Source: an uncultured virus (IMG/VR IMGVR_UViG_3300023239_000006)
Taxonomy: Duplodnaviria; Heunggongvirae; Uroviricota; Caudoviricetes
Virus record (IMG/VR): IMGVR_UViG_3300023239_000006
Span: 1-64,000 of that record
DNA: 64,000 nt
Strand: one strand, 5' to 3'
This document shows positions 1-21,843 of this stretch, piece after piece; the stretch's first letter is position 1, and the number at the start of each line of letters is the position of its first letter. The notes beneath the pieces were generated by a model, which was not told the DNA's origin, searched no databases, and saw nothing but the letters and a program-made list of their open reading frames with translations. Both the position numbers and the translations under genes were made by a program.

Positions 1-99
1 GTGATGATTCTCTTTATAACCCGATATGTCTAAAGGATTATTTTTTCTATTAGATATAATGCTGTTATACCATCTTGTATATTTGTTATTCTTAAACAT
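1..99 (-). CDS. HNH homing endonuclease, N-terminal part (continues beyond left edge)
   Basis: Manual translation from ATG at 99: MFKNNKYTRWYNSIISNRKNNPLDISGYKENHH, typical N-terminus of phage HNH endonucleases (Y..WY..II...Y.E.HH). TAAATA box 5 nt upstream. Not in the ORF track. Confidence 0.75.
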   Translation of the reverse strand, partial: MFKNNKYTRWYNSIISNRKNNPLDISGYKENHH

Positions 100-157
100 A
101 CAAGTATTTATCAAACTTTGGATCAAACCTACCGGTAACTAAAATTATTTTGCGCAT
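92..157 (-). pseudogene. Orphan 5' stub of a cytidylyltransferase-like gene interrupted by the HNH gene
   Basis: Translates MRKIILVTGRFDPKFDKYLYV*. The first 13 aa match the (K)IVLVTGGFDP-LHxGH start of HIGH-motif cytidylyltransferases. Own TAAATA box at 163-168. Confidence 0.65.
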
Positions 158-184
158 AAAGTTATTTATGTACGCAGTTAATAC

Positions 185-808
185 CTACCAGCCGAAAATG
201 TAATCTTTTCTAACGCTGGTTAATTCTATTGCACCTAGCGACTTAAGATATTCGCCTGCTTGCTTAAACTTTGCATGTTGTTCAACAATTAAAATAGGTT
301 TATATTTTAATATTGTTTCTGTAGCACCTTTAAGTACTTGGAGTTCGTAGGTTTCACAATCGAGTTTTATCATTCCAAATTTTGGAAGATTTAAATCATC
401 TAATTTTTTAATTAAAATACTACCAGTTCCGAGCGAATCTTTTTTAATATAACTTGCGCCAATGTTTTCATGATCGAAAAACATATCAACAGTATTGTTT
501 TCCTCGCCCAGCGCAAAGTTGTACAAATCAACGTTTAGCCCTTTAACATTTAGTTCTAAACATTCGTAGACTTCGTTAATTGGTTCAAATGCAATTACTT
601 TATTAAACCGTTCAGCTAGATGCTTTGCCCAAAGTCCTACATTGGCTCCTACATCAACAACTAGATCAAAGTCAGTTACATATTTGTATGCTGCATCTCT
701 TACGTCATCTTGATATTGTGCAGGTCCGCCTTTTTTAATACGTTTAGCAATTAACCCTTCAAAATGTTCGTCGCAATCGGGCATCCAATATTCGTAAACT
801 TTTTTCAT
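185..808 (-). CDS. FkbM-family SAM-dependent methyltransferase
   Basis: VDVGANVG, FEP and IKLDCETYE motifs. Confidence 0.85.
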   Translation of the reverse strand: MKKVYEYWMPDCDEHFEGLIAKRIKKGGPAQYQDDVRDAAYKYVTDFDLVVDVGANVGLWAKHLAERFNKVIAFEPINEVYECLELNVKGLNVDLYNFALGEENNTVDMFFDHENIGASYIKKDSLGTGSILIKKLDDLNLPKFGMIKLDCETYELQVLKGATETILKYKPILIVEQHAKFKQAGEYLKSLGAIELTSVRKDYIFGW

Positions 809-810
809 CT

Positions 811-1443
811 TTATACCTTGTATTTGTTGTATTCTACAAGATATTTATCTATGGTTTTCTGTTCGCCTTTGAGAGTTAAAAATACCCCATTGGTTTTATT
901 TTTTCCACTGTTTATCCATTGTTGTCCTACTGGAGAAAAATTATAATCAGTTGACATTTGCCCAAGAATTTTTTGATCTCTTCCCCACTTCCATTCTTCA
1001 ACAGGAATACTAGTTAACAACTCTGCATACCGTTTTCTAAAATCAGTATTGCCAAAAGATACTAAACATGCTAGCCATCTTGTTGATTTATGGTGCTGCA
1101 TTACGTACTGTTTTGTAAATAATGTTTTAAATTCAGCTTCGGTAAAACTTCTTGTGCATATCGTATCAGTATCTACTACAATTAGGGATTCACTATTTGG
1201 AATCTTTGATGCTGCAAGAAACCTAGCAGCCTGCAAATAAGAAATTTTAGATTCGTCATTTAAAAAAGAGATGTTTTCAGTTGTATATGAAACAAAATCT
1301 AATTCTTTTGCATTTATTGGGTTAACTATATGACATCTTAGTTTAATCCACGGATTGTTATAATGTATAGATTGTAATAATGCAATCCCCCAATCGTCAT
1401 AATAAGATTGGTCGCACCCAATTAAAATACTATAGTGACGCAT
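811..1443 (-). CDS. Putative glycosyltransferase-like protein (GT-A)
   Basis: DxD motif (VVDTDT), W..DQ motif near C-terminus, next to the FkbM gene. Confidence 0.45.
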   Translation of the reverse strand: MRHYSILIGCDQSYYDDWGIALLQSIHYNNPWIKLRCHIVNPINAKELDFVSYTTENISFLNDESKISYLQAARFLAASKIPNSESLIVVDTDTICTRSFTEAEFKTLFTKQYVMQHHKSTRWLACLVSFGNTDFRKRYAELLTSIPVEEWKWGRDQKILGQMSTDYNFSPVGQQWINSGKNKTNGVFLTLKGEQKTIDKYLVEYNKYKV

Positions 1444-1885
1444 CTTCTAATCCTGATACTCGTAATTTAACAATGTTGCTTAGATGCCATTGTTTCTGAT
1501 CAAGTGCTTTAATAATGCCCAACCACTTGTTACGTAATAGGGCAAAATCGTTGATAATTTTTTCAAAGTCTACAACGTCAGCTTCACCTTCTACGAACTT
1601 TTCACAGTCCCTAGAAGATAAAGCTCGTTGATAATTTTCAAGATACTTGCGAAAATATTGACTACGAAGTCTACGAAGTTCAATGTGTAAGTACTCAAGG
1701 ATACCTTCAATCTCTTGAAGTTGATTAAAGCGGTTTTCTACGATGCCGGGCATTTGCGAACTTGCTTTCTCAATGTTTCCCGCTATGCGGACATCTTGTT
1801 TTGCATGAATTAATTCAGCTTCATAATAAGCCACAGCATCGGGAATATTGCTTATATCTTTACTAACCTTGTGGTACCAGTTCAT
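1430..1885 (-). CDS. uvsY: UvsY-like recombination mediator
   Basis: Size, helical sequence, C-terminal KALDQKQWHLSNIVKLR, near uvsX. Confidence 0.75.
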   Translation of the reverse strand: MNWYHKVSKDISNIPDAVAYYEAELIHAKQDVRIAGNIEKASSQMPGIVENRFNQLQEIEGILEYLHIELRRLRSQYFRKYLENYQRALSSRDCEKFVEGEADVVDFEKIINDFALLRNKWLGIIKALDQKQWHLSNIVKLRVSGLEDASL

Positions 1886-2116
1886 TTAATCCTCGTAATC
1901 TTCTTCGTCTTGTTCTTCGATTTCTTCACCGTCTACTGCATATTCAATAGCCTGATCTAGATATGGATCTACGCCCATTAAACTTTCTAGTACGCTTTCT
2001 TTAATCCCATGATCTAGCAAAGCGTTTACAAAATCTGCTGCAACATCTTTTCTTGCTTTCTCAGGGATATGTTCAATAACAATAGTCCAAATATCCGTAA
2101 TTAAATCTTCTTTCAT
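1886..2116 (-). CDS. Hypothetical acidic protein
   Basis: 76-aa ORF coupled between uvsX and uvsY. Confidence 0.7.
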   Translation of the reverse strand: MKEDLITDIWTIVIEHIPEKARKDVAADFVNALLDHGIKESVLESLMGVDPYLDQAIEYAVDGEEIEEQDEEDYED

Positions 2117-3192
2117 TCAGTAATCTCCGTTTCAGGTTCAACAATAGTAGTTATCTCTGAATCGGATTTTTCGCCATGTTTCGAAATGTCTGCCATAATA
2201 ACATCGAGACCTTTCTTTTCATTGCGTTCCCACGGCTTACGGAACTGTTTGATAATTTCGCCATCACTGGTTATGTATACTAGGCTGTTACCTTCTTTCT
2301 TGAGCATCCCTTTAGCTTCGAACAAGTCGACTAATCCACTATATGGACTCATACCTGTTTCATAAGGAATCTCAACCTGTACACTTTCAAACGGCTTTGC
2401 ATAACGTGTTTTCATAATCTTACAAGCTGCACGAATACCTTGCACAGTTGAAGTTTTGTTACCGGCTGCATCAAGTTTCAACTTTAACTTGCGCATAGCG
2501 ACAACAATTGAACTTGCGTAGATAAAGCCTTGGCCGCCACTGATTTTATCATCCGGATCAAACATATCTTGTGATGCGTATGTGTGATTAGTACATACCA
2601 TACCAATGTTGTAAGCACCAAACATATTAACACAGTTACGAACAAGTGCGGTTAGTGCCTTAGGCTTACGGCCCATATCACCTTTCATATCACCTGCTTG
2701 GAATTGATTAACATCAGTCGGAGTCAACAACATGCCCAAGCTGTCAACGATAAACAATACTTTAGGACGATCTAGTTCATCCATTGTTTTGTACTCTGAA
2801 ATAAACTCTGTGATAGTCTTTGCTACATCGTCAATCATAGCCATGTTAAGTTTTAGCAACTTATCTGGACTCGTATCAACACCAAGAGCATGTAGCCATT
2901 TTTCATCAAGCGCATTCTCTGTATCAATCAAGATAGGATAGATGCCTTGTGCTTGTGCGTTCTTAACTAGATTGCCCGAACAGATAAAAGATTTACCTGC
3001 ACCAGATTCCCCAGCAAATACTGTAACCTTGCCTAGTGGAATGCCTCGATCAAAGTGTCCACTGATAAGATAGTTCAATGCGTAGTTGTTTGTACTAACC
3101 CAATCTGTTGGGTCGTTAAAGCCAATACTTAAACCTTCGATTGATTTAGTGATTGACTTTCTAAATTTAGAAATATCAAATGCTTTTGCCAT
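2113..3192 (-). CDS. uvsX: RecA-like recombinase UvsX
   Basis: Walker A GESGAGKS, DTENALD, IVDSLG, SGG motifs. Confidence 0.93.
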   Translation of the reverse strand: MAKAFDISKFRKSITKSIEGLSIGFNDPTDWVSTNNYALNYLISGHFDRGIPLGKVTVFAGESGAGKSFICSGNLVKNAQAQGIYPILIDTENALDEKWLHALGVDTSPDKLLKLNMAMIDDVAKTITEFISEYKTMDELDRPKVLFIVDSLGMLLTPTDVNQFQAGDMKGDMGRKPKALTALVRNCVNMFGAYNIGMVCTNHTYASQDMFDPDDKISGGQGFIYASSIVVAMRKLKLKLDAAGNKTSTVQGIRAACKIMKTRYAKPFESVQVEIPYETGMSPYSGLVDLFEAKGMLKKEGNSLVYITSDGEIIKQFRKPWERNEKKGLDVIMADISKHGEKSDSEITTIVEPETEITE

Positions 3193-3246
3193 ATTAGTCC
3201 CTGTAAATGAAGAAGAGTGGGAACCTGTCCCACTCTTTTATGTTGC

Positions 3247-4251
3247 TTACTCTGCTGCTTTGCGATTACGAATCATTGCAAGAATGTCTTGCGCACGACT
3301 ATCGCCACCTGTTGTTGCTGCTGGTGCAGCTACTGGTGTTGGTGCTTGAGTAACTCTTGCTACAGGAGCAGGCTCGCTGTCTGCATAGTCTGCACTAGCT
3401 TTAGCAGCTGGTGTAGCTGTGTTAGCAGTTGCACGATGCGGATCGCCAGTTGCTTGACCCATACCCGCTGGCTTGTAATACTGACCCCAACGTTCCAGGT
3501 CATATGCTTCGCCATCAACTGATGCTTCAAACATTTCCTTCATTACCTTAAGCTCAACATCAGTTGGCTTTTTAGGCAGGAAGTCGCTGAGAGTGTACAA
3601 CTCATTTGTTGCCAATGCACTTGCTTCAACTTCTGTCAATGCACGTTCACGACGGCTCCACTTTGAAGTAGAGTAATCAGCGAAGCCACCTTTAGATGTC
3701 TTAGCAATACGGAAGTCTACACCTTTCAGGTAGTCAGTTGGCAACTCTTCCAATTCTGGATCCATCAATGCTGAACGGATAATTTGAAAGATTTGAGGAC
3801 CAATGATGAATCGACGAATTGGGTTTGCCGGAGTCTTTTCTTCACGAATAGGATCTTCAACAACAAAGCCTTGGAAAATGTATGAACGCTTTTTCCAGTA
3901 CTTACGACCCATGTCTTCTAAAGATTTATCTTTAAACCAACCACGTACTTCTGATAAGATCGGACAAACAGTACCGTCATTGTACATTTCAATACAAGGA
4001 ACTTGTACTTGAACTGGACGACTGTCAGTTTCACCTTTAATACCTGCGAACGGCAACTTGATCATTGCACGTTCTACCCAGAAGAATGTATTGGCAGAAT
4101 TGCCATCGGGTAGCAAACGAATTACTGCTTCCTTACCTTCAGCCATGTTCCAATGTGGGTAAATTGCGTTGTCTCCACCGCCGGTGGATTGTCCTGTGGA
4201 CTTTGATTGTGCTTCTGCGAGTTTAGCACGGATTTCTGCGAGTGATGCCAT
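3247..4251 (-). CDS. 32: Single-stranded DNA-binding protein (T4 gp32-like)
   Basis: IRLLP, CP, YWKKR, ADYSTSKW motifs; strong SD (GGAGG); upstream of uvsX. Confidence 0.85.
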   Translation of the reverse strand: MASLAEIRAKLAEAQSKSTGQSTGGGDNAIYPHWNMAEGKEAVIRLLPDGNSANTFFWVERAMIKLPFAGIKGETDSRPVQVQVPCIEMYNDGTVCPILSEVRGWFKDKSLEDMGRKYWKKRSYIFQGFVVEDPIREEKTPANPIRRFIIGPQIFQIIRSALMDPELEELPTDYLKGVDFRIAKTSKGGFADYSTSKWSRRERALTEVEASALATNELYTLSDFLPKKPTDVELKVMKEMFEASVDGEAYDLERWGQYYKPAGMGQATGDPHRATANTATPAAKASADYADSEPAPVARVTQAPTPVAAPAATTGGDSRAQDILAMIRNRKAAE

Positions 4252-4312
4252 TTTTGTATGCCTCCTATAGCCTAAAATAAAAATGTTGTATATGCCTTAA
4301 TGCACATAAGCT

Positions 4313-4341
4313 ATTATGCGCTTTTTATTTAGTATTGTCAA
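4313..4341 (-). promoter_or_regulatory. Sigma70-type promoter for the gp32 operon with an embedded late box
   Basis: TTGACA (4336-4341)-17 nt-CATAAT (4313-4318); TAAATA at 4326-4331 in the spacer. Confidence 0.75.
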
Positions 4342-4379
4342 CGATTATCTACTACTTTATTGGTTTTATTAAGCCAAAA

Positions 4380-4405
4380 GAAAAGGACTTCGAAAAGTCC
4401 TTTTC
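4380..4405 (-). terminator. Intrinsic terminator
   Basis: gaaaaggactt-cgaa-aagtccttttc inverted repeat followed by a T-run on minus. Confidence 0.75.
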
Positions 4406-4420
4406 ATGAAGCATTGCTGC

Positions 4421-6160
4421 TTACATACTGTACATGCCTGATAGTGCTTTAATACGAGCTAGCTCTGGATTCTCTGCTGGTTCTGGAGCTTGTTGTTGCG
4501 GCGCCATTCTTTCAGCCATCTTACGAGCTACTGTTTCTGCCTGCTCACCAAACTTCTTACCTACCATAGTGCAAACGCCTTCTGGGCCTTTGGGAAATGT
4601 GCCTGAATCTTTATCATAAAAGCTGTGCATAAACTCAGCTAATTCTTGTACGTTCATCTTGCCACTATGTTCTTCCGGCGATTGTTCTTCCGATTCCTGT
4701 GGGACTTCTTCTGGCGCAGTTTCTTCACCCCCTTGGTCTGTCGCCGGCTCACCGCCCACTGGTTCTGGTTGAAAATCACCAAAATCTAATACCTCTAACA
4801 CTTCTGGAGCATTGGCTTCCAGCCATACTTGTACTAGGCCTCTTACATCTGCTTCCGGATCTTCTTTAGATTGCGTCTTAATTTCTTCTTCTAATCGTGG
4901 ATCATCTATGATGCCTTTAAGACTTTCAATTGCATTAGAACCGTCTACGCCTGCGGGGAATGCCTGGCTAACTAACTCTTGTAATTGTTGTGCTGCTGCT
5001 GCCTGTTCTTCTTCATCTTGGCTTTGTATTGCGCTTTCTTCGCCTAAATTCATAGCCCATTGTTCAAACTTTGCAAATGGGTCATAGCGGTCTGCGTTGA
5101 AATCCTCGTCTTCAGTTTGGATTTCTTCTTGTGTCATGGCGACTATGTCGTCGTAGCCTAGTTCACTTTCTTTCATTAAACGATACAGTACAGGAAATAC
5201 TGCGGCCATATCTTCTTTGAAATTCTTCACTGTAAATTGATCTTTAAATTGTTCTGCAATTTCTTGCGGAACTTCCATAGGTTGCTGTGCCTGGAAACTT
5301 TCTTTGTAAGCCTCATAGTGGCCTTGTTTTGATAGTGCTTTTATTTGCTCACGTAATCCGTTAAGTGCTTGTGTACTACGCTCAACAACACTGTTCGTGT
5401 CGCTGTTCATTAGATCATTGCGTACAACATAATTGCCAAAGCTCTTTAATTGTGCAATCTCTTCACTCATCTTAATGATGCTTTCACCAATGGCATCGTA
5501 CGGTAAGCCACCGTTAGCCACATGGCGTTGCATAGCACGGGCGCCTGCTAAGTGAATGAATGGATATTTAAATCTTTCACCGTCTGCGTTTTCTACAAAC
5601 AGGCCAGCGATATTACGACTTCTGGCACCCGGTGCCATATCGTCATTTAACTTTTGACTGTGTTTAACAATCAATCGTGTATTTTCTAATTTTTGGTAAC
5701 TAACGCTTTTAGTACCGTACATTGTGCTTTCTGCCATAACGCCTTCTCCGACTGGAACTGAATTTTGTGCTTCTTGTTTAGGTTGAGCATTACGAGTTAA
5801 AAATTTGTAATCTCTTTTATCTAGGTTGTCTTTGGCAATATCTCTAGTGTCAAAGTTTAGTAATCTACGCTTGGCAAACATACGTAATTCTTTTAGGAAT
5901 CCGTACCACCTGTCTTTTTGCTCTGCGTCCATTGATTCTGTAATTCCGTGACTGAAGTAAATCTTCATGGAATTATCTTCTGCTAGACTAATGCTAACGT
6001 GACCAATAGGAGTTTCACCTTCCATATAGTCAAAATCAAAGAAACGTGCTTCTTGTGGATTTATAGTAATTTCGCCAATTTCTGTACCTAATTTTAGACC
6101 AGAGAATCTGCTACGAATTTTGTAGAATAAATCTGTTGCGATGTTGTTAGTTGCGTCCAT
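4421..6160 (-). CDS. Large hypothetical head-associated protein with acidic C-terminus
   Basis: Long ORF downstream of terminase. Start moved to ATG 6160 (TAAATA box 5 nt upstream). C-terminal ELARIKALSG resembles the scaffold C-terminus. Confidence 0.7.
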   Translation of the reverse strand: MDATNNIATDLFYKIRSRFSGLKLGTEIGEITINPQEARFFDFDYMEGETPIGHVSISLAEDNSMKIYFSHGITESMDAEQKDRWYGFLKELRMFAKRRLLNFDTRDIAKDNLDKRDYKFLTRNAQPKQEAQNSVPVGEGVMAESTMYGTKSVSYQKLENTRLIVKHSQKLNDDMAPGARSRNIAGLFVENADGERFKYPFIHLAGARAMQRHVANGGLPYDAIGESIIKMSEEIAQLKSFGNYVVRNDLMNSDTNSVVERSTQALNGLREQIKALSKQGHYEAYKESFQAQQPMEVPQEIAEQFKDQFTVKNFKEDMAAVFPVLYRLMKESELGYDDIVAMTQEEIQTEDEDFNADRYDPFAKFEQWAMNLGEESAIQSQDEEEQAAAAQQLQELVSQAFPAGVDGSNAIESLKGIIDDPRLEEEIKTQSKEDPEADVRGLVQVWLEANAPEVLEVLDFGDFQPEPVGGEPATDQGGEETAPEEVPQESEEQSPEEHSGKMNVQELAEFMHSFYDKDSGTFPKGPEGVCTMVGKKFGEQAETVARKMAERMAPQQQAPEPAENPELARIKALSGMYSM

Positions 6161-6171
6161 AGTTATATTTA

Positions 6172-7758
6172 TCAATATCCTGTGCTTACAAAGATCGGCA
6201 TTGGCATTTGTTCTTCAGAAAGTCGTTCAGACATTTTTTCGTAAATCTTAGGATCCCAATCTGCTAATACATCTGCCATACGTATAATTAGCAATGCAGC
6301 GCTTATTAGATCGTCATTTTCTCCTGATTTAGCATTAAATCCTAGGCCGCTGGCTACGAATGTTTTAAGTTCTGATAATAGAGGTTTTGATTTAATAATT
6401 AGTTTGTTAGTTTCGACTAAGTTCTTAAACTGACTACATGCTGTGACTTTACTGCGATGTGTTGTATTAAATCCCTTACGAAATTTACGCACATGCCCTT
6501 TGCGAATAGGTTCGCTTAGGAATAGTCCTGGAAAGTTTTCTTCACCGATGTCACTGATAACAATAAGTGCTGCTTCACCTAGACTGTTGTTTTCTACTGA
6601 GTAATACATCTGGGGCGCACCGCCTTTTTCTATGCCACGATCTTGGATATATCGCAGTATCTCTCTCATGTGCTTTATCTGCTGTTGTATAGGAGTTAAA
6701 TTATGACGCCACTCTGCAACCTGTATCATACTAGGCATTTCAAATACTTGAATAGCTGCATAGTTGCCGCCTGTTCCCAGACTGGGATCTAACGACAATA
6801 AGTAAGTTGCCTTAGGATCAATGTCTTTGTAGAATCTAGTTTGCCCCATAGTCATTACAGGATCAACTCCAGACAGCTCTGCAAGTTTTACAGTATTAAT
6901 CAAGGTTTCGTCAAAGATCAAGAATTCGCAATCAAACTCGCGCCGGAAACGTTCAGGACCAATTTTAGCACGTTCTACTGCCGCCCACTTCTCATCTCGA
7001 TCTGGATGTTCATTCCAGTGTGCAAAGAAGCTGTGGAATCCGTTTGTGCCAAGTTCTTGTTCGTTGCCATACTCGTCAAACTTCTTATTAGCTTCTGTCC
7101 AGATTAAAGCAAATTGATCTTCGTCGCTGTTTGGTGTCGATGTAATGATACACTTACCACCTGTTGACAATGTAGGGCTTAGTGCCGTCCAGAACTCTTT
7201 AGCTTTCTCTGGCGGCTGCACGAATGCGAATTCATCACAGTAAATTAATGATAGTGACTTACCACGACCAGTGTTTTCTGTTGTAGTAGTTGCTTGAATA
7301 CGTGCGCCGTTGTCGTATTCAATTGTGTTTCTGTTGTAGCTGTATACACCTGCACGAATAAAGTCAGGCAAGTTCTCATAACCGAATCGGTAACGATTCA
7401 TAATATCCTGCGCACCTTCGTACTTATGAGCAGCAATTAATACTTGTGCTTCTGGCACAAACATTGTGTACCATAGTAAATATCCCGTAGCGCAAGTAGT
7501 CTTACCCATCTGACGAGGCAGCATACCAATAGACTGTTTGTAGTTGTGGTATGACTGTATTAGCCTCTCTTGGTATTCATACGGTTCAAACTTAATCGAT
7601 CCACGTACAGGATGTTGAATCTTTAAAAAGTTTTTACAGAAGTATAACGGACCGTCTACCGGATGCATACATGCTTCAAGATGCTTAACTTCCTCTAACG
7701 TGTATCGGATCGGAGCATGTGCTTTCTTAATTAAATTACCGTCTAGTGATTTTGCCAT
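6172..7758 (-). CDS. 17: Terminase large subunit
   Basis: PRQMGKT Walker A, YCDEFAF Walker B, TSTPN, nuclease DPS and NDD motifs. Confidence 0.95.
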   Translation of the reverse strand: MAKSLDGNLIKKAHAPIRYTLEEVKHLEACMHPVDGPLYFCKNFLKIQHPVRGSIKFEPYEYQERLIQSYHNYKQSIGMLPRQMGKTTCATGYLLWYTMFVPEAQVLIAAHKYEGAQDIMNRYRFGYENLPDFIRAGVYSYNRNTIEYDNGARIQATTTTENTGRGKSLSLIYCDEFAFVQPPEKAKEFWTALSPTLSTGGKCIITSTPNSDEDQFALIWTEANKKFDEYGNEQELGTNGFHSFFAHWNEHPDRDEKWAAVERAKIGPERFRREFDCEFLIFDETLINTVKLAELSGVDPVMTMGQTRFYKDIDPKATYLLSLDPSLGTGGNYAAIQVFEMPSMIQVAEWRHNLTPIQQQIKHMREILRYIQDRGIEKGGAPQMYYSVENNSLGEAALIVISDIGEENFPGLFLSEPIRKGHVRKFRKGFNTTHRSKVTACSQFKNLVETNKLIIKSKPLLSELKTFVASGLGFNAKSGENDDLISAALLIIRMADVLADWDPKIYEKMSERLSEEQMPMPIFVSTGY

Positions 7759-7771
7759 ATTGTTATTTACT

Positions 7772-7800
7772 GAAAAAAATAGGCTCCGAAGAGCCTATTT
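7772..7800 (-). terminator. Intrinsic terminator
   Basis: aaataggctc-cgaa-gagcctattt hairpin with T-run on minus. Confidence 0.8.
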
Positions 7801-7815
7801 GGTTTTATAGCTGTA

Positions 7816-8256
7816 TTAAGCGAAAGATAACCCAGTCAATGCCACTTCAGTAATTGTGATATCATTTTCTGCAACACCAAGTGCTGCGCCAATTGCATCT
7901 TCAAGATTTTCATAAGATCCGTCAAAACTTGTTGATGCTCCGTAGCCGTCTCCAGTATCTTCAGAGTGGATTAGCGCTACAAACTGATTAGCACCGGATG
8001 CTGTTGGCTTGCCTGCGTAATAAATCTCTGCACGGCTTTGAAGTCCTGTAAGTGCCTTAGACATATTACTGTTAGCAACTGTAGGTGTTGTGGTAAAGTT
8101 AATAGTTGCTGAAACAATCTTAATTGCCGTTAGCGTAGGAGTACCAAAACTTGTATATGGTCCAACTCCTGCTGCGCCATCTCCTAATACTCTTCTTGCA
8201 TTGGCGTCAACATTAACTGCTGTGCCGCCCGCGGTTGTTCCATATAAATCTGCCAT
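7816..8256 (-). CDS. Hypothetical virion protein
   Basis: 146-aa Ala/Gly/Thr-rich ORF with SD, in a late operon. Confidence 0.65.
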   Translation of the reverse strand: MADLYGTTAGGTAVNVDANARRVLGDGAAGVGPYTSFGTPTLTAIKIVSATINFTTTPTVANSNMSKALTGLQSRAEIYYAGKPTASGANQFVALIHSEDTGDGYGASTSFDGSYENLEDAIGAALGVAENDITITEVALTGLSFA

Positions 8257-9062
8257 TATTTTGCTCCCTTAGCTTCTGCTAATCTTTGTAATAGTTCTGC
8301 ACGGATACTAGCACGTAGGTCGGCGCCTTCTCTAACACGGTTCATTGGGTTGTCGCCGCCAGCCACTTTAGGATGTGTTCCTTTAGGCTTATTCATGCCA
8401 CCGGCTAATTGGTTGTTCATATAGTCAACACTTTTAACTTCAGGATCTGGCTCGTTTGCATATGATTCGTCTTTTTCTTTATCACGCATCTTCTTTTCTA
8501 GCTTGTGATCGTCCATGTCGTGATCACCATCGCCATCTTGGTCGCCCATTGCTTTCTGCATAGCGTCCATTGGACTGTCATCTTTCTCCATATCGTGATC
8601 GTCCATGTCGTGATCACCATCACCATCTTGGTCACCCATTGCTTTCTGCATAGCGTCCATTGGACTGTCATCTTTCTCCATATCGTGATCGTCCATGTCG
8701 TGATCACCATCACCATCTTGGTCACCCATTGCTTTATCAAAGTCTGGTAACATCTTCAACGGACCTTTATCTAGATTACCTAAACTTAAAGGTGCAATGC
8801 TAGGTCCAGGAGGAGTTAAACTAGGCATTGGTTGATTGATCATATCCGGATTTACTTTAGTCATTAACTTTAGTAAACTTTCAATGCTGTCCATACCTTG
8901 TGCATTAAGATTAACACTCATTGATGGTGGAGTTACTGCAGGAGTAGATGACATTGGGGGCATCATTCCACTCATCATAGAATCACCGCAGGCTTCTACT
9001 GCTACGTTACTGACCGGGCGATCTAAGTCACGCATTGTTTGCATTAATTTATTAAAATCCAT
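8256..9062 (-). CDS. Hypothetical low-complexity protein with Asp/His/Met-rich tandem repeats
   Basis: 268-aa ORF with 30-aa repeat KAMGDQDGDGDHDMDDHDMEKDDSPMDAMQ. Confidence 0.7.
   Translation of the reverse strand: MDFNKLMQTMRDLDRPVSNVAVEACGDSMMSGMMPPMSSTPAVTPPSMSVNLNAQGMDSIESLLKLMTKVNPDMINQPMPSLTPPGPSIAPLSLGNLDKGPLKMLPDFDKAMGDQDGDGDHDMDDHDMEKDDSPMDAMQKAMGDQDGDGDHDMDDHDMEKDDSPMDAMQKAMGDQDGDGDHDMDDHKLEKKMRDKEKDESYANEPDPEVKSVDYMNNQLAGGMNKPKGTHPKVAGGDNPMNRVREGADLRASIRAELLQRLAEAKGAK
8505..8733. repeat. 90-bp tandem repeat, about 2.5 near-identical copies
   Basis: gtgatcgtccatgtcgtgatcaccat recurs at 8505, 8595 and 8685. Confidence 0.95.
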
Positions 9063-9649: not shown

Positions 9650-9657
9650 ATCAGTAT

Positions 9658-12078: not shown

Positions 12079-12092
12079 TAGTACTGCGTAGA

Positions 12093-12731: not shown

Positions 12732-12733
12732 TT

Positions 12734-15700: not shown

Positions 15701-16114
15701 ATCAACCCACCATTTGCCGTTATTCGGGGCCGCTCCCGGAGCAGTTGCTTGGGCTTCTAACTCTGATAGATCAACATCAGCACGTACAATAAATGCTGCG
15801 TTGCTGACTCCTAGCAAGCTGTAAGCTGCTAGCAGACCGTATTCGTTTCTTTCACCGCCGTGTACTGGACTTGAAGAAGCAGTCTTCTCAAAGAATGGTA
15901 CTCCAAACAGATCAGTAAGATCGCGTTGGCTAGTTAGTTTAAATGCCTTGCCGGCATTTGCTTTTGTTGTGGATGAGGCAACCGCTGTCCCTGATCCGTT
16001 CGTTTTGTCTTGCGCTGTAGCTACTACGATAAGAGGAGTAGTACCAGGCTCTGCTGGTGTGTAAAAACTCTCGTCGATAACTGTAACTTGTACGCCTGGT
16101 GATTGTAGTGCCAT
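12734..16114 (-). CDS. 18: Tail sheath protein with large internal insertion
   Basis: N-terminal SPGVQVTVIDES; C-terminal PWFAPAG..RG, INPI, RINVARL, FEPND, AVEFIYI. Confidence 0.95.
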   Translation of the reverse strand: MALQSPGVQVTVIDESFYTPAEPGTTPLIVVATAQDKTNGSGTAVASSTTKANAGKAFKLTSQRDLTDLFGVPFFEKTASSSPVHGGERNEYGLLAAYSLLGVSNAAFIVRADVDLSELEAQATAPGAAPNNGKWWVDTQATTWGIQEWNSADVSTTGGQKFAAKTPIVLTDDDSSKIESGGVPKASIGSIGDYCVVFQTVQGSGAGSEEAKIYFKSAGLPVAGVVAGAWALVGSTEWALSHATVTGSGFSTPIAGNFTINGTTITLTGGETVAATVALINGLTIVDAEEARGVFARAVGGEIYLYTSGTNDQPATVDSSLSTTITIGAGTTTLSLLGLVAGTFYAPGLQQTPHTQVPTWKSNDATARPTGSVWLKTTEPNNGARWRVKQWNSATATWVASEAPIYATTNAALYYLDRSGGGINISANALMVQTNSQEGSFNDIVPDSVTFRMWRRSVAAGQYTTIATSITVGSVASTGPKSFTIAESVKGVIALGTAKTISFTATNDMDDAELIAQAINAAGFANIEAESVAASTAPTNATNVLSIYHKLGGDFRIVDTDSVFGNLFASALNVYAAPAGSSDDYVVSAWAPFTTTAFSASASAPLNEADDGQLWYSSSVGDVDIMIHDGTTWVGYRNAASDFNSVDTTRIGYTPVVSASNPWIAGTLTGDLWISTADLENYPTIYRYNSARTDIADGKNRWELVDKTDQQTEEGILFADARYDLNGEETIAASISDLANSNFLDFDAPDPDLYPRGMLLWNLRRSGGNVKRYQNNYVNTASDNVRFNNNESMADYATDRWVTASPNNEDGSGSFLRHAQRGVVVAALKSAVDTSSEIRDEERRNFNIISCPGYPELMSNLVNLNIDRGITAFVVGDTPLRLASDATTLTNWGSNAELVTDNGDKGLVTYDEYLATFYPSGFTTDLSGANAVVPSSHMMLKTIALSDNVSYPWFAPAGTRRGGITNATAVGYIDAASGEFQTVALNEGQRDTLYDLKINPITFFNGVGLVNYGQKTRARNASALDRINVARLTVYLRSQLNKLARPFIFEPNDKITRDEVKQACESLLLELVGLRALYDFAVVCDESNNTAARIDRNELWVDIAIEPVKAVEFIYIPLRVKNTGEI

Positions 16115-16220
16115 ATTCCCTATTCTCCTGGTAATAGTTTACTCAAAGTATTTACCTGAATGCAGGAAAAATAGTCCGTTATAACCCCTGAAAAAGGGGC
16201 AGAAAAGGCTAAGTATTTTT

Positions 16221-16556
16221 ATGAGACCACTTTGCAAGTGCGGATACCGCCCTAAAGCAGTAAATTACAAGAAAAATGACAGAGTATACTACCGAAGTCT
16301 CTGTGAAATCTGCATGTCCAACGGAATTGGTCATGGAATACCCCGCTGGGTTAGAGCAGGGTATCAGATAAAGTTACAATGCGATAAGTGCGGGTTTCGA
16401 TCACCGCATAAAGAAGTGTTTAGAGTATTTCACGTAGACGGTAATTTAAACAACTGCCGTCCTAACAATCTAAAAACTGTTTGCTGTAACTGTGCTCAAG
16501 TACTAGGCAAAGAAGGAATTGCCTGGAAGCAGGGTGACCTCATCGCTGACTATTGA
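16221..16556 (+). CDS. Small Cys-rich HNH-like protein
   Basis: CxxC pairs and FHVDGNLNNC..NNLKTVCCNC; TAAGTA box 5 nt upstream. Confidence 0.7.
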   Translation: MRPLCKCGYRPKAVNYKKNDRVYYRSLCEICMSNGIGHGIPRWVRAGYQIKLQCDKCGFRSPHKEVFRVFHVDGNLNNCRPNNLKTVCCNCAQVLGKEGIAWKQGDLIADY

Positions 16557-17159
16557 AGCGGCCTGCTTGTACAATGCGTCAATAGTATGATTGTTGTCTA
16601 GAACAGCGTCAAAGTCTGTGCCCACCCATGCTGTTTCACTAGCATGAATTTTTCGCATCTTTAATTCTTGAATTGCATAATTGCGGCCTGTGTTTGCGTC
16701 GAGAGCCACTTGATACCAATCAGGTAATTCTCCACGTTGTACCCAGACAATCTTACCACCTGCATTTCGAATACTTTGAATTTCATTAGGAAATCTACAA
16801 TCACTAATTACTACATTATCTTTACTTAGACGGAGTTTGTTTTCCAAGCTAGCGATCCAGATATCGTCATGGAATGTTTTGCGGCATACTTCTGTACCCC
16901 AATATTGGAGAACCCAACGAGGAGTTAGTGTAGGCATTGCTAGGCGAGTTGCCCACCACGGATCTACTTGTTCTCGCCATTCGCGAGCTTCCTTAGTACG
17001 ACCTTCTAGCATAGTTCGGTCCCAACCAAATACTGCTGCCACTGCATCTTTAAGAGTTGATGCAAAGCTCTCTCTACGATACCGATGAAAATTTACGAGA
17101 TAATCCGCAACAGTATCTTTGCCGCTGCCTATAAATCCCACTACCCCAATTATAGCCAT
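16503..17159 (-). CDS. 1: Deoxynucleoside monophosphate kinase (T4 gp1-like)
   Basis: GFIGSGKDT P-loop, TPRWVLQYWGTE, ISDCRFPNE, HASE. Confidence 0.92.
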   Translation of the reverse strand: MAIIGVVGFIGSGKDTVADYLVNFHRYRRESFASTLKDAVAAVFGWDRTMLEGRTKEAREWREQVDPWWATRLAMPTLTPRWVLQYWGTEVCRKTFHDDIWIASLENKLRLSKDNVVISDCRFPNEIQSIRNAGGKIVWVQRGELPDWYQVALDANTGRNYAIQELKMRKIHASETAWVGTDFDAVLDNNHTIDALYKQAASIVSDEVTLLPGNSFFA

Positions 17160-17178
17160 AAGTTTTTTCCTTTTTCAT

Positions 17179-17207
17179 ATTATATTACACTTTTATATAC
17201 TTGTCAA
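17179..17207 (-). promoter_or_regulatory. Consensus sigma70 promoter for dNMP kinase (probable replacement promoter)
   Basis: TTGACA (17202-17207)-17 nt-TATAAT (17179-17184). Confidence 0.85.
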
Positions 17208-17229
17208 CCATAATTATAAATACAAAGTC

Positions 17230-17355
17230 ATGAAAGATTACCAATCTCAAGCATTTGTTTATAAATGGAAGCATATACCAACTAGTATGTGGTATATCGG
17301 ATCACGAACTGCAAAAAATTGTCATCTTAACGATGGATTGCTAACAGCAGTATAG
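17230..17355 (+). pseudogene. Truncated GIY-YIG homing endonuclease
   Basis: MKDYQSQAFVYKWKHIPTSMWYIGSRTAKNCHLNDG carries FVY...YIG then stops after 41 aa; TATAAATA at 17215-17222. Confidence 0.75.
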
Positions 17356-17426
17356 ATGTCAGCGCTGTTAATCAGCGTTCTACCAGTTGTGGGCCTTTCT
17401 AAGAACCCGCATACACCTATAATCAT
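17322..17426 (-). pseudogene. Orphan original 5' end of dNMP kinase fused to unrelated sequence
   Basis: MIIGVCGF(LERPTTG...) parallels the kinase start MAIIGVVGFIGSGK; has SD TAGGAG and its own promoter. Confidence 0.7.
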
Positions 17427-17445
17427 AACTATCTCCTATACGACA

Positions 17446-17474
17446 ATTATACTATAATAATGATATAGGGTCAA
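17446..17474 (-). promoter_or_regulatory. Sigma70 promoter in front of the kinase stub
   Basis: TTGACC (17469-17474)-17 nt-TATAAT (17446-17451). Confidence 0.75.
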
Positions 17475-17475
17475 C

Positions 17476-17814
17476 CTATCTATAAGGTTTTGGTTGTTTT
17501 GGTTTGTTAGTGTTCAATCTATTAGCTAATACACTTGCAGTATTGATAGATTTAGTTCTTTGAGTTCTTCTAGCTGCTTGAGGAGCAGTACGTGCTCTAG
17601 TAGTTTTCATCTTCTGGGCCTGTGCCATATCCATAGGCTGGTGGCATTTTGATGGATGACTAACTTGTCGGCTCTTCCTTGGTCCTGATGAACAACGGAA
17701 TTTTAATTTAGTTGTGCCGCCACGAGCAGTGTGCTTGCCAACACCCCAAACCATTTTAGCAGTTTCAGTATATAACTCTTCGTCATCTTCAAAAATAAAT
17801 TCATTAGCTTTCAT
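17476..17814 (-). CDS. Hypothetical basic protein, possible internal head protein
   Basis: Start moved to 17814 (TAATG overlap with the gp13 stop); MKANEFIFE N-terminus; Lys/Arg-rich. Confidence 0.65.
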   Translation of the reverse strand: MKANEFIFEDDEELYTETAKMVWGVGKHTARGGTTKLKFRCSSGPRKSRQVSHPSKCHQPMDMAQAQKMKTTRARTAPQAARRTQRTKSINTASVLANRLNTNKPKQPKPYR

Positions 17815-18569
17815 TATCCGATCACCCATCCCCAACCTTGTGTAGTAATACCAGTCTTAAGGTCTTCACTTAGTCTATCCATATCAGATTGTCCTTCAGC
17901 TTTCATTGCTGCCCCGTTAAGCGCTGTGCCGCCCTGCGGACCTGCAATGCTGGCAAACTTTTCACGGGCTTGACCAAGCATCATTTTGCAATTAGCAAGG
18001 GTGTAATCTTTAATCCATTGTCCTGCATACGTATCTTCGATAATTGCGTGATCAGGTTTGACGTTATAAACCAACAACATAACTGACTCTTGAGTGCGAG
18101 GACGTTGATGAATTGTTAGTTTACGGTTTTGTGGATTCCAATTAAAGTTAATAAAAGATCCAAACATCTTACCAACCATTTCTTGATAGCCTGCAAACAG
18201 TTCGTATGTTGCTAGCCCACCCATGTTTGTTGATGATAACAAATAGGTATTTGTGTAGGCTAAGTTAAACGGTTCAAATACGGTACCGCCGCTTCCTCCG
18301 CCTGTGCGCGAACCAATAGTTCTACGATAAATCTGTCGGACAACCTGTATTTCTTTTGGCAAAATATACTCGTTTTGATCTTCTTCAAGATTCAAAAAGA
18401 TGTAACTTTCTTCAACAGCATTATCTGCACGTTGTCGAAATACTGCTAAACTGCGTGTTAGCGCAGTTTCGTAATGGATAGGATCTAGCTCTATATCAAT
18501 CATGCCGTCACCCAGCATGGCTTTACAGTAGTCGTAAACGCTTTGTTTGGTAATATCTATTTGGCTCAT
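17814..18569 (-). CDS. 13: Neck protein (gp13-like)
   Basis: LG...IDIEL N-terminus, WIKDY.LA..K..LG..REKF..I.GP.GG..LNG. Confidence 0.8.
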   Translation of the reverse strand: MSQIDITKQSVYDYCKAMLGDGMIDIELDPIHYETALTRSLAVFRQRADNAVEESYIFLNLEEDQNEYILPKEIQVVRQIYRRTIGSRTGGGSGGTVFEPFNLAYTNTYLLSSTNMGGLATYELFAGYQEMVGKMFGSFINFNWNPQNRKLTIHQRPRTQESVMLLVYNVKPDHAIIEDTYAGQWIKDYTLANCKMMLGQAREKFASIAGPQGGTALNGAAMKAEGQSDMDRLSEDLKTGITTQGWGWVIG

Positions 18570-18574
18570 ACAAG

Positions 18575-18595
18575 TATTTATCGTTACGGTAAATA
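18575..18595. promoter_or_regulatory. Back-to-back late promoters for the divergent neck genes
   Basis: TAAATA on minus at 18575-18580 and on plus at 18590-18595, each 4-5 nt from an ATG. Confidence 0.7.
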
Positions 18596-18599
18596 TAGT

Positions 18600-19865
18600 A
18601 TGCCAAGATTAAGCCTCTACCGCGCCCAAAAGGGCAATGATTTTAAATTCATCGATAAAACCGTTTGGGAAATGTTCCAAGTCGGCGGAGTCGATGTACT
18701 TGTTCACAAGTATATAGGACCTGGTTCTAGCAGTGAAGTTACTCCGACAACTCCTGCATATACCACAGACAATCCTTTACAAATACAAGATTTACTATTC
18801 TTAGAAAATAGAGATCGTAAGTATGATCCGGATATATATAGGCTGCGAGGTGTTTATAATATTCAAGACATTGACTTTAACCTAAGTCAGTTTGGTCTAT
18901 TTCTACAAAATGACACAGTATTCATGACGTTTCATATTAACGATACTGTCGAAAAACTTGGACGTAAAATTATGTCGGGCGATGTAATTGAGCTACCGCA
19001 CTTAAAAGACGAGTATGCACTTAACGATTTGCAGTTTGCTCTAAAACGTTTTTACGTTGTTGAGGAAGTCAATCGTGCAGCGGAAGGATATTCAGTAACT
19101 TGGTATCCGCACCTATATCGTGCTAAATGTAAACCACTAGTAGACAGTCAAGAATTTAAAGACATTCTCAACGGTCTCGCTGACGGAGATGGTAACGATA
19201 CTACCACTACCTTACGTGACATTATGTCTACGTATGAAAAAGAAATGCAGATTACCCAAGCAGTTCTTAACCAAGCAGAAGCAGATGCTCCTAAGAGCGG
19301 ATACGATACTACTAAATTCTGGACTGTTCAACTGGATGAAAACGGAAATGCTGATCTAGTAACTGTTGACAATGAAACTATTGATGCTAGCTTGCAAACG
19401 CAGGCCACTGATGCTAATGGCAACTTGTTGTTTGATGCCAACAACGACCCAATATATGTTGGGCCAACAGCTAGCACAATGTTACAAACTGCCAAGGGCA
19501 ATGGCTACCAAGGTTACCTAACAGGAGATGGCATTCCTTCAAACGGCGCGCCGTTTACTGCTGGCATTGCATTTCCACTGTCAGGCGTAGACGGACAGTA
19601 TTGCCTAAGAAAAGATTACATGCCTAACAGACTGTTTAGGTTCAACGGAACAAGATGGGTTAAGATGGAAGATATACAGCGTATGACTATGAACAATCTA
19701 GGTGCTAGCGATACCGGAGTTGGCGATACATTTGAAGGTAAAGATGTTCGTCAAACACAGAAAGGTACATTTATTAACAATACAAATACAGCAGTCATCG
19801 ACGGGCATACTGTTGAAGAGAAACAAAGCCTTAGCAAGGCGCTTAGACCACAGGCGGATGTATAA
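18600..19865 (+). CDS. 14: Neck/head-closure protein (gp14-like) with C-terminal extension
   Basis: Divergent from gp13; LSQFGLFL, GDVIELP motifs; start moved to ATG 18600. Confidence 0.6.
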   Translation: MPRLSLYRAQKGNDFKFIDKTVWEMFQVGGVDVLVHKYIGPGSSSEVTPTTPAYTTDNPLQIQDLLFLENRDRKYDPDIYRLRGVYNIQDIDFNLSQFGLFLQNDTVFMTFHINDTVEKLGRKIMSGDVIELPHLKDEYALNDLQFALKRFYVVEEVNRAAEGYSVTWYPHLYRAKCKPLVDSQEFKDILNGLADGDGNDTTTTLRDIMSTYEKEMQITQAVLNQAEADAPKSGYDTTKFWTVQLDENGNADLVTVDNETIDASLQTQATDANGNLLFDANNDPIYVGPTASTMLQTAKGNGYQGYLTGDGIPSNGAPFTAGIAFPLSGVDGQYCLRKDYMPNRLFRFNGTRWVKMEDIQRMTMNNLGASDTGVGDTFEGKDVRQTQKGTFINNTNTAVIDGHTVEEKQSLSKALRPQADV

Positions 19866-20413
19866 TGTATATCTATAAATTTATACATACCGAAAGCGGA
19901 AGAGCGTATATAGGGCAAACTATACAAAATCCAAATCGGCGTCGGCTTGAACATATTGCCGATAGTAGGAATACTCCAAGAACATATCACTTTCACAATG
20001 CTTTAAAAAAATACGGATCAGAATCATTTATATTTGAAGTTATTGCAGAAGCGAAATCTTTGGAAGAATTAAACTTGTTAGAGGAAAAATATGTGAATCA
20101 ATACGATTCTATTAACAATGGGTTTAATATTCGACAAGCAGGTGGCAACAAGCTACATTCTGAAGAGAGTAAACAACGGATGAGTGATGCTCAAAAAGCT
20201 GCTCATTTACAGAGAAGATTAGAAGGAAGAGATAGCGGATGGAAAAGGAAAGATGGCGGGCCTATGAAAGGAAAAATCTGTTCCGAAGAAAATAAACAAA
20301 AAAAACGAGAAGCACATTTAAAAGCACAGCACTATACTGGAAAAACTTGGAAAGTTATAGATGGTAAAAGAGTGTGGTTAACTAAGGAGGCTGTGGCTAA
20401 CGCTACTGTATAA
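19865..20413 (+). CDS. Free-standing GIY-YIG homing endonuclease with NUMOD3-like repeats
   Basis: YIY...YIGQT, R..EH, E, NGFN motifs; HSEESKQRMS and SEENKQK motifs; flanked by 8-bp direct repeat TGTATAAT. Confidence 0.9.
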   Translation: MYIYKFIHTESGRAYIGQTIQNPNRRRLEHIADSRNTPRTYHFHNALKKYGSESFIFEVIAEAKSLEELNLLEEKYVNQYDSINNGFNIRQAGGNKLHSEESKQRMSDAQKAAHLQRRLEGRDSGWKRKDGGPMKGKICSEENKQKKREAHLKAQHYTGKTWKVIDGKRVWLTKEAVANATV

Positions 20414-21843
20414 TCATCGACTATTTTTATGACGGACAAATAAGACGATATGTAACGCAATTCATGCGTGTGTTTATAGGATTTAAGTATCAAGACGGAG
20501 AAGGCAATCAATTAAGTGTTCCGGTGCTGTACGGAGATATGACCAGGCAAGTTGCTAGTATTATTAAAGATAACAGCGAAAACAAAATGTCTACCGTTCC
20601 TCGCATTGCCTGTTATATCAGTGGCGTTGACATGGATATGAGTCGGATGAGTGATGCTACGTTTGTTAGTAAGGTTAATATTAGAGAACGTAGATATGAC
20701 GATATCGACGGTACAATTGATTATCAAAATGCACAAGGCGGCAACTATACCGTCGAACGGCTAATGCCTACTCCGTTCACACTGTCTATGAAAGCAGACA
20801 TCTGGACCAGTAACACTGATCAAAAGTTACAATTATTTGAACAGATTATGGTATTGTTTAATCCTAGTCTTGAGTTACAAACAACGGACAACTATATTGA
20901 TTGGACTAGTTTAAGCGTTCTAAATATAAAGACAACTAATTTTAGTTCTAGAACAATACCACAAGGCACTGACAGTGACATTGACATTTGTTCTGTTGAG
21001 TTCGATATGCCTATATGGTTATCTCCGCCAGCCAAGGTCAAGAAGTTAGGCGTGGTTAGATCAGTTATTGCTAATGTGTTCACAGAAGCCGGTGATATTG
21101 TTAATCTTGAAGATTTAGCATTTAATCGGGATAAGGGATCTTTCCAGACTAATCCGTTGCGCTTTCGTGTACTATTGTTTAAATCTAATACTGGTAATAT
21201 CAGTGATAATATTTACGATCTTACACTAGTCAATCCAGGTGCTGCTGTTATTGCACAAGGGTTAGATCAAAAAGCATTCAAGTTAGGTGAACCAGTTGAT
21301 TGGAATAGTTTGTTATCAGCTACCGGTGGGTTTAAAGCTGGAGACCATATTTTCTTTAAGCAGGCTAGCGGCTTTGACATGGTAGGCACATTTGATATTA
21401 ACCCTACTGATCCAACTATTCTAACTGTGTCGTTTGCAGACGATCCTAACCAAATTTCTAATACTGTTATTGCAGGCAAAACTTATGTAGATGCAATCAT
21501 TGATCCTTATAGATTCAATCCTGTTACTACATTTAACGGACAGGCAAATATACCTGAGATTAGATATCTAATGTTAGACGATGTCAATCCTAATAGTGCA
21601 AATGCAGATGGACCCGATGGCTGGAAGAATCTCGACCTTAGTGACCCAGTTATCAAAGCCAACAGTATTATTGAATGGAACGGCACTAACTGGGTTGAAG
21701 TTTGGGATCCTGCTACTGCTACTGTTCCAACTTATATTCAAAACTATCGTACAGGTATCCAATATCGCTGGGACGGTACTCAATGGATGAAAGCATTTGA
21801 AGGCGAGTACGCTCCAGGATACTGGGGAATAGTTAACGGGTAA
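20413..21843 (+). CDS. 15: Tail sheath stabiliser/terminator (gp15-like); true start probably upstream of ATG 20464
   Basis: gp15-like motifs (VPVLYG, P.PFTL....IW, EQI...FNP). The frame is open from 20401 and encodes DYFYDGQIRRY, the expected N-terminus, with no ATG. Confidence 0.7.
   Translation: MIDYFYDGQIRRYVTQFMRVFIGFKYQDGEGNQLSVPVLYGDMTRQVASIIKDNSENKMSTVPRIACYISGVDMDMSRMSDATFVSKVNIRERRYDDIDGTIDYQNAQGGNYTVERLMPTPFTLSMKADIWTSNTDQKLQLFEQIMVLFNPSLELQTTDNYIDWTSLSVLNIKTTNFSSRTIPQGTDSDIDICSVEFDMPIWLSPPAKVKKLGVVRSVIANVFTEAGDIVNLEDLAFNRDKGSFQTNPLRFRVLLFKSNTGNISDNIYDLTLVNPGAAVIAQGLDQKAFKLGEPVDWNSLLSATGGFKAGDHIFFKQASGFDMVGTFDINPTDPTILTVSFADDPNQISNTVIAGKTYVDAIIDPYRFNPVTTFNGQANIPEIRYLMLDDVNPNSANADGPDGWKNLDLSDPVIKANSIIEWNGTNWVEVWDPATATVPTYIQNYRTGIQYRWDGTQWMKAFEGEYAPGYWGIVNG

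Follow-up and report, generated by a model that had tools for sequence, protein, structure and literature searches.

How can an endonuclease gene occupy the first codons of a conserved phage gene and leave that gene in use? The question is raised three times within 20 kb by the window, the 64,000-nucleotide stretch analysed here (positions 1 to 64,000 of the 126.6-kb viral contig IMGVR_UViG_3300023239_000006, from an uncultured virus of the Caudoviricetes). A reading made from the sequence alone, hereafter the sequence-only reading, had placed three endonuclease genes within codons 1-13 of their host genes, a cytidylyltransferase (CT), a dNMP kinase and a gp15-like tail gene, and both profile matches and relatives confirm that all three are real and lie where they were placed. 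We consider it very likely that each of them is an independent, free-standing homing-endonuclease cassette, of a type that may be called "end-replacement"; each cassette brings its own rewritten gene beginning, and the host gene consequently works without splicing. At these sites we observed the anatomy of discrete inserts, polymorphism for their presence and absence, identical inserts in diverged backgrounds, and co-conversion tracts.

The whole contig is estimated to represent about one third of a jumbo-phage genome. A DNA-level search of the phage collection gave no match to the window, and the closest relatives in that collection, found by protein only, are jumbo phages of the Rak2/121Q/CBB/PA5oct/Atu_ph07 type (25-52% identity for the gp15-like and dNMP-kinase proteins). 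Environmental relatives in IMG/VR number in the hundreds, and it is from these that the counts over 80 related loci for each of the three genes are taken. One of them, a 186-kb contig (G001, which includes loci L001 and L161), is 99.4-99.8% identical to the window across long stretches, and this near-isogenic genome is the decisive comparison. Contigs or unitigs of the sequencing runs X1, X17 and X23, the last of which is a salt-lake metagenome, were also compared.

At the CT site the endonuclease gene is truncated by the left end of the window, so that only its first 33 codons are present (1..99, minus strand, with the ATG at 99..97; HNH + NUMOD3, phrog_655, E 2e-7). The complete gene encodes 231 aa and is seen in two read-through contigs, L300 and L301, obtained from one metagenome scan; the L300 protein matches Pfam NUMOD3 (E 2.6e-13) and HNH (E 4e-4). 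A stub open reading frame (ORF; 92..157, minus strand), whose stop overlaps the HNH ATG, consists of 13 native CT codons (157..119, MRKIILVTGRFDP) followed by 8 unrelated codons; it was located by tblastn with the G001 CT N-terminus, and its junction was mapped on 13 relatives. Six nucleotides (N6) upstream of the stub ATG is the motif CATAAATA (163..170, minus strand), a putative retained ("orphan") late-type promoter, and an alignment of upstream regions gives it the same spacing to the ATG as the ATAAATA before uninterrupted CT genes. This motif, which appears similar to the T4 late promoter, TATAAATA, looks like the old CT promoter, today serving the stub ORF and the HNH gene.

The endonuclease-free CT relatives are uninterrupted at all 80 of 80 loci, and most of them have a similar ATAAATA motif upstream and begin MK[RKTN]IVL[IV]TGGFDP[LI]HSGH, the N-terminus that the stub resembles. 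An extra copy of this N-terminal motif is confined to endonuclease-bearing alleles (79/80 loci have a single copy, and the other has an unrelated chance match). In L300, which is 100% identical to the window, the order is stub, HNH gene (231 aa), ATGA stop/start overlap and full CT gene, the last encoding a 252-aa protein (CTP_transf_like + mannose-6-P isomerase) with the N-terminus MKIVLCTGGYDPLHSGH. When this CT gene is compared with that of G001, mismatches occur only in the first ~52 nt and the next 385 nt are 100% identical. L301 comes from a diverged phage and has its own stub, MNKVVLVTGGFDP, an identical junction and the new CT start MKVVLCTGGYDP; the 5' half of its HNH gene is 100% identical to that of L300 across ~440 nt, as opposed to 60-84% in the flanks.

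A scan of IMG/VR with the HNH protein produced 18 loci in total. All nine for which both flanks were available (9/9) have a stub, the HNH gene (78-100% identical) and MK[IV]VLCTGGYDP, and they comprise five different stubs and five different CT gene bodies with one identical junction; some of the stubs in invaded loci have decayed, reading FDS or containing early stops. In one further locus the HNH gene that follows a stub is broken, three loci are cut by contig ends, and 5/18 are distant homologues (36-60% identity) located elsewhere. That the respelled start is constant and the stub tracks the recipient lineage leads to the conclusion that the start is part of the mobile unit and the stub is the recipient's.

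Upstream of CT, where G001 has 55 nt (locus L161, 5530-5584), a segment of 2,041 nt occupies the genome of the window's phage. It contains the HNH gene with its stub, the new start of CT and, in addition, two cargo genes, a 210-aa ORF and an FkbM-type methyltransferase (the 185-1443 region of the window, also present in L300), which the cassette may have dragged along from a sugar-modification island through co-conversion. As a correction to the sequence-only reading, the gene at 185-808 is this FkbM-type methyltransferase, and CT itself is present in the window only as the stub. Window positions 1-400 are missing from G001. Joining the ends of the 126.6-kb contig into a circle did not continue the HNH gene, and when IMG/VR was scanned for the exact pattern of the stub/HNH junction, the sole match was a contig starting at the identical base. 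The window's first base, inside the HNH gene, is the exact break point of three mutually independent contigs of IMG/VR as well (in L162/L356 and L357), which suggests that the contig breaks at position 1 mark an assembly branch point, the identical HNH 5' half being common to different phage genotypes.

At the dNMP-kinase site the endonuclease is a remnant, and the cassette could be defined to the base. The kinase gene in use (16503..17159, minus strand; phrog_139, E 8.5e-50; Pfam DNMK) starts MAIIGVVGFIGSGKD. The stub lies 267 nt upstream of that start on the same strand (17403..17426, minus strand) and retains the original 8 codons MIIGVCGF (ATG ATT ATA GGT GTA TGC GGG TTC), identical to L001 bar 1 nt; its ORF extends to 17322. 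Between the two, on the plus strand and divergent from the new kinase start, is the decayed GIY-YIG gene of 42 codons (17230..17355). Its identity to the N-termini of GIY-YIG relatives is 45-76%, and three inspected relatives, neither fused nor cut, encode 172-220 aa. There are two promoter-like sites, both on the minus strand: a new one within the cassette upstream of the new start (TTGACA-17-TATAAT, 12/12; 17179..17207), the best site in 16400-20600, and an "orphan" one before the stub (TTGACC-17-TATAAT, 11/12; 17446..17474), which is followed by a GGAGA ribosome-binding site, ranks second-best in the same interval and is conserved in relatives. The proposal of the sequence-only reading that two sites retain an orphan promoter together with an N-terminal stub is thus borne out, as is its expectation that the stubs would resemble the N-termini of uninterrupted homologues: MI[IV]G[IV]CG[FW]IGSGKD is found in 78/80 related kinase loci (of the remaining pair, one locus is cut and the other belongs to the same phage), and extra N-terminal copies occur only in endonuclease-bearing alleles, 78/80 loci being single-copy.

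The sequence-only reading had called for comparison with relatives lacking each insert, and here L001/G001 and X23 provide it. L001/G001 lack window positions 17140-17403 by BLAST and have an uninterrupted, ancestral-type kinase gene, with one flank 99.8% identical to the window. Beside the insert there are 22 substitutions relative to L001 within 17075-17139 (65 nt) as against 4 in the following 880 nt, and this steep cluster indicates that the foreign tract, that is, the replacement 5' end, spans kinase codons 1-28 (17075..17159, minus strand) and not ~13 codons as first thought. In a 13.8-kb contig from X23 (depth 33), which comes from a habitat of the window's kind, 17074 and 17404 are linked by 59 different letters where the window has 329. 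The whole cassette is consequently 17075..17403, 329 nt for 59 nt of empty allele. The occupied allele was also found in runs X1 and X17, the latter also containing a variant of the remnant with an 8-nt tandem duplication. The degenerate pattern MAIIGVVGFIG is confined in IMG/VR to 7 cassette-bearing contigs, and no native MAIIGVVGFIG kinase was found there outside the cassette lineage. In T4-like contig L250 (1919-3061), a GIY-YIG homologue of the remnant is seemingly fused in frame behind a prohead-protease-like gene, giving one 380-aa ORF; the two are separate genes in L252, L258 and L259.

At the gp15 site the endonuclease is intact, a GIY-YIG + NUMOD3 gene of 182 aa (19865..20413, plus strand; Pfam E 2.5e-7; phrog_314, E 1.6e-27) whose ATG lies in a TAATG overlapping the stop of the upstream virion gene. 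It is followed by the gp15-like tail sheath stabiliser gene (20416..21843, plus strand; Pfam T4-gp15_tss), with a likely start at ATC 20416. In uninvaded alleles, which account for 74 of the 80 loci, the upstream gene ends ...GAA TAATG GAT TAT TTT, its stop overlapping the gp15 ATG (TAATG-GAT in 74/74). Four of the 80 loci are invaded and, like the window, read ...GTA TAATG TAT ATC, then the 182-aa GIY-YIG + NUMOD3 gene, then ACT GTA TAATC ATC GAC TAT TTT; at the remaining two (L011, L056) only 43-50 nt of the endonuclease remain and TCG precedes gp15 codon 2. The endonuclease gene of the window's phage is 100% identical to that of L020/L022/L023, one phage type whose gp15 protein is 63% identical to the window's and whose flanks are 69-76% identical; the identity reaches ~30 nt into gp15. 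The identity profile defines a shared block, the mobile unit, at 19862..20445 (plus strand), comprising the endonuclease gene and about the first 10 gp15 codons, and in X17 this block is a unitig of its own (depth 36.7 versus ~10 in the flanks). In all, 12 IMG/VR contigs, among which the gp15 5' end has three variants, contain 100% identical copies of the endonuclease gene, and its homologues were found at 38 IMG/VR loci, directly before gp15 in 33 of them.

Taken together, the CT and gp15 sites encode a homing-family nuclease with NUMOD3, and the remnant belongs with them by GIY-YIG similarity. Each insert is present in some and absent from other close relatives at one exact site (G001 for CT, L001/G001 and X23 for the kinase, the 74 uninvaded loci for gp15), and the inserts are more alike than their flanks and have co-conversion tracts beside them, as is expected of recent horizontal spread. 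Every insertion point adjoins the most conserved DNA of its gene, which is the region of the HxGH motif in CT, the P-loop in the dNMP kinase and the N-terminus in gp15.

Where, then, does gp15 start after such an insertion? The sequence-only reading held that the endonuclease had taken the ATG itself. It did take the TAATG start, but this was no plain loss, because an in-frame ATC (20416) stands exactly in the old ATG's place, with a further in-frame ATC at 20413 and ATA at 20410. The first in-frame ATG, which is also the first of ATG, GTG or TTG, is codon 17 (20464). That gp15 now begins there, N-terminally shortened yet working, with the preceding 16 codons as untranslated leftovers, would be a rival explanation, and two remnant-bearing loci, L011 and L056, have no AUN start and retain Met17. 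We nevertheless regard it as unlikely. Conservation in the family is highest in these 16 codons, which raise the Pfam T4-gp15_tss match by 17.5 bits, from 68.2 to 85.7; among 12 cassette-linked alleles the 15 codons after the start have a synonymous divergence (pS) of 0.86 versus a nonsynonymous one (pN) of 0.09, a ratio of ~0.1, with no stops or frameshifts; and in the invaded lineages L314, L315, L320 and L321 Met17 is missing and ATA, ATT or ATC is located exactly at the old start. In L320 and L325 there is no in-frame ATG for ~40 codons. Across the 33 loci the codon before gp15 codon 2 is ATA, ATT or ATC in 22 (10 distinct junction types), an ATG stands at most 4 codons ahead of the conserved motif in 7, GTG or TTG is found in 1, and none of these in 3. 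That related cassettes leave ATA, ATT or ATC makes a non-AUG start likely, and we propose, with moderate confidence, that gp15 is initiated at an AUH codon (AUA/AUU/AUC), which in the window would be ATC 20416.

A candidate ribosome-binding element for such a start, AAGGAGG plus a 5-bp hairpin (20384..20406, plus strand), is located inside the 3' end of the endonuclease gene and is present in 10/10 junction types aligned; it may help gp15 initiation. Located downstream of the Shine-Dalgarno sequence and ahead of the gp15 start, the hairpin is unexceptional in its z-scores and only weakly supported by covariation, with 0 compensatory pairs counted in the automatic alignment. In the window its stem is preserved via three two-sided changes that the automatic alignment did not register. 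GGAGG and a 5-bp hairpin are kept at the 3' ends of the endonuclease family (L314-L329, L011, L056), 12-16 nt before gp15 codon 2, and most members have their own UAA stop in the hairpin loop. A frameshift or readthrough fusion of the GIY-YIG protein to gp15 was ruled out for the window, in which there is no slippery site and a gp15-frame stop lies at 20398-20400.

Several observations weigh against the account given so far. With respect to gp15, neither ATG nor AUH precedes codon 2 at L325 and L326, where the endonuclease is intact, or at L011 and L056, where it is a remnant, and AUH initiation is therefore not the whole story; ATG codon 17 is a possible start in the window; and the low pN/pS could be partly older than the invasions. 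At the kinase site homing is a reconstruction from scars, because the endonuclease has decayed to 42 codons and no intact kinase-adjacent copy was found (0/41 loci of remnant homologues). At the CT site the window's stub was probably imported within a larger co-converted segment and not formed in place, given the 2,041 nt that stand instead of 55 nt relative to G001. Finally, three more small GIY-YIG/HNH-like genes are plainly intergenic; conserved genes flank them, and neither a stub nor a repeated gene end accompanies them (G000 64312-64746, minus strand, just right of the window; G001 L298 1174-1833; and L299 1264-1866).

The exceptional gp15 junctions have features of their own. In L325/L326, L011 and L056 the sequence before gp15 codon 2 is AAA TCG, and L325/L326 also lack Met17; in the latter pair, where gp15 lies in the +1 frame, the endonuclease gene has GGAGG-N5-GUU UAA C at its end, an arrangement resembling the prfB frameshift site. 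A prfB-like +1 shift at GUU-UAA-C could fit L325/L326, but a TGA blocks it in L011/L056 and we did not adopt it. Downstream of the intergenic gene at G000 64312-64746, ~600 nt contain no ATG-started ORF of at least 60 aa.

Could the stubs instead be scars of passive mosaicism, left by illegitimate recombination between phage modules, with the endonuclease genes as bystanders at module borders? The 2-kb segment with two cargo genes that separates the window's phage from G001 upstream of CT, the nature of the CT region as a variable sugar-modification island, and the dead endonuclease at the dNMP kinase are all compatible with such a history. However, we think it improbable, because the junctions are abutted by three different endonuclease families and recur to the exact base (5 CT stub lineages; 33/38 loci at gp15), the inserts are 100% identical despite flanks of 69-76%, the co-conversion tracts beside them are short and steep, and endonuclease-free loci have no stubs in 79/80 (CT) and 78/80 (dNMP kinase) cases, just as the sequence-only reading had anticipated. 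The idea that the inserts are self-splicing introns or inteins, with the stubs as first exons or exteins, can be set aside as extremely improbable even though gene-internal phage endonuclease genes are mostly intron- or intein-borne (PMC2988022, PMC10448857): Rfam, group I and II introns included, gave no match at E <= 1 in window positions 1-22000, L300 or L301; Pfam scans of the window proteins and the L300 HNH protein found no Hint/intein domain; the inserts terminate in stop codons or lie on the opposite strand, that of the dNMP kinase being just 264-329 nt, with its endonuclease gene on the other strand; the gene body after each insert repeats the stub codons, so that a spliced product would carry them twice; and new starts with their own ATG, and a kinase cassette with its own promoter, make splicing unnecessary. 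In this respect, too, the splice-less cassettes of the sequence-only reading are upheld.

For the end-replacement cassettes, then, we envisage the following sequence of events. The enzyme would cut an endonuclease-free allele in the gene's most conserved DNA, here at the 5' end, the probable targets being the GGFDP/LHSGH nucleotide-binding motif in CT, the P-loop in the kinase and, in gp15, the invariant N-terminus; homing endonucleases typically recognise such conserved DNA (PMC2988022). Repair of the double-strand break would then copy the donor's endonuclease gene together with the donor's variant first codons; the respelled start, which differs in sequence from the native one, would presumably be immune to further cleavage. 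At CT and the dNMP kinase, the recipient's promoter and first 8-13 codons would be left upstream of the insert as a stub; at gp15 only TAATG would be left behind, turned into the endonuclease start. The host gene would be read from the imported start with no splicing required, and the stub would become the left homology arm for later invasions, a layout that could supply target-gene homology on both sides even without conserved upstream synteny. At the CT and gp15 sites the host's promoter, ribosome-binding site or start codon would also drive the endonuclease gene, and gp15 would then most likely be initiated at the in-frame ATC (AUH) that substitutes for the lost ATG.

The sequence-only reading saw in the new starts a rescue of the gene by recoding. 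A respelled 5' end is indeed physically in the insert, but the "recoded" starts look like natural variant alleles moved by co-conversion, not purpose-made recodings, because endonuclease-free CT genes with the MKIVLCTGGYDP start, as in L300, exist (L231, L235, L236). Such genes could represent the allele from which the start came, or they could have arisen through loss of the cassette.

The nearest precedents come from fungi and T4-like phages. Fungal mitochondrial mORFs form "gene hybrids" in Allomyces macrogynus atp6 and in Glomus atp6, atp9, cox2 and nad3 (PMC3630166). As with the phage cassettes, the target is a conserved gene, invaded close to one of its ends by a free-standing endonuclease ORF; the ORF brings a diverged foreign copy of that end, which is then in use, and the native end stays alongside as an orphan duplicate, with no involvement of splicing. 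The same hallmarks are found here: two diverged copies of one gene end flank the ORF, the used copy travels and the orphan matches the host lineage, as judged from the constant CT start set against 5 stubs, and from a dNMP-kinase stub that equals L001 bar 1 nt and a used start unique to cassette carriers. The fungal enzymes differ in being mostly LAGLIDADG, as opposed to HNH/NUMOD3 and GIY-YIG in phage hosts, and the mORFs replace the 3' end (C-terminus) whereas the phage cassettes replace the 5' end. Since it is the 5' end that is replaced, a start codon, and in some cases a promoter too, has to come from the cassette, and the old promoter stays with the orphan.

The MobA element of T4-like phages consists of mobA, gene 39/60 extensions and a bypass cassette (bioRxiv 10.1101/2022.08.31.505936). 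It is likewise an HNH cassette inside coding sequence, with a defined insert, clean junctions and repeated insertion, and it deletes 55-75 nt of its target and substitutes an element-carried homologous region, much as the cassettes described here do. However, MobA splits its gene into two polypeptides and needs ribosomal bypassing, whereas the host genes here are unsplit because only their first codons are replaced. The intronless homing of T4 seg/mob genes also involves free-standing GIY-YIG/HNH genes that adjoin a conserved target, double-strand-break repair and flank co-conversion, but the 12 free-standing T4 endonuclease genes are intergenic (PMC2988022), unlike the insertions here, which are within a reading frame or on a start codon and yield a stub or a changed start. 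Full-text literature searches, whose coverage excludes subscription journals, turned up no account of a phage cassette that replaces the 5' end in this way.

Does the layout extend beyond these three sites? It is possible, although we would stop a little short of calling it probable, that phages hold a general class of splice-free end-replacement cassettes with a resistant gene start, which would thereby gain intron-like two-sided homology, a safe site in an essential gene and a host promoter, and that gp15 was forced onto an AUA/AUU/AUC start served by the Shine-Dalgarno sequence and hairpin of the cassette. For a homing endonuclease to inhabit conserved genes, this is a third way, in addition to self-splicing and intergenic placement. 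It accounts for short orphan ORFs and "duplicated" N-termini that mislead phage annotation, and it means that foreign gene ends, and apparently neighbouring cargo genes as well, are brought in by the action of an endonuclease. The three sites also provide enzyme/target pairs with natural empty and occupied alleles, and in the gp15 family the AUG start codon of an essential gene has been replaced by AUH in a naturally occurring series of alleles.

Two other features of the window deserve mention. A 111-aa cysteine-rich ORF (16221-16556, plus strand), which overlaps the 3' end of the dNMP-kinase gene convergently and has a weak HNH_3 match (E 0.008), was considered as a mobile endonuclease and rejected, being a conserved core gene with 79 hits among 80 loci at 74-83% identity. 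At 8256-9062 (minus strand) a 268-aa acidic protein contains three tandem units of ~30 aa (MGDQDGDGDHDMDDH.MEKDDSPMDAMQKA), and the repeat yields long ORFs on both strands.

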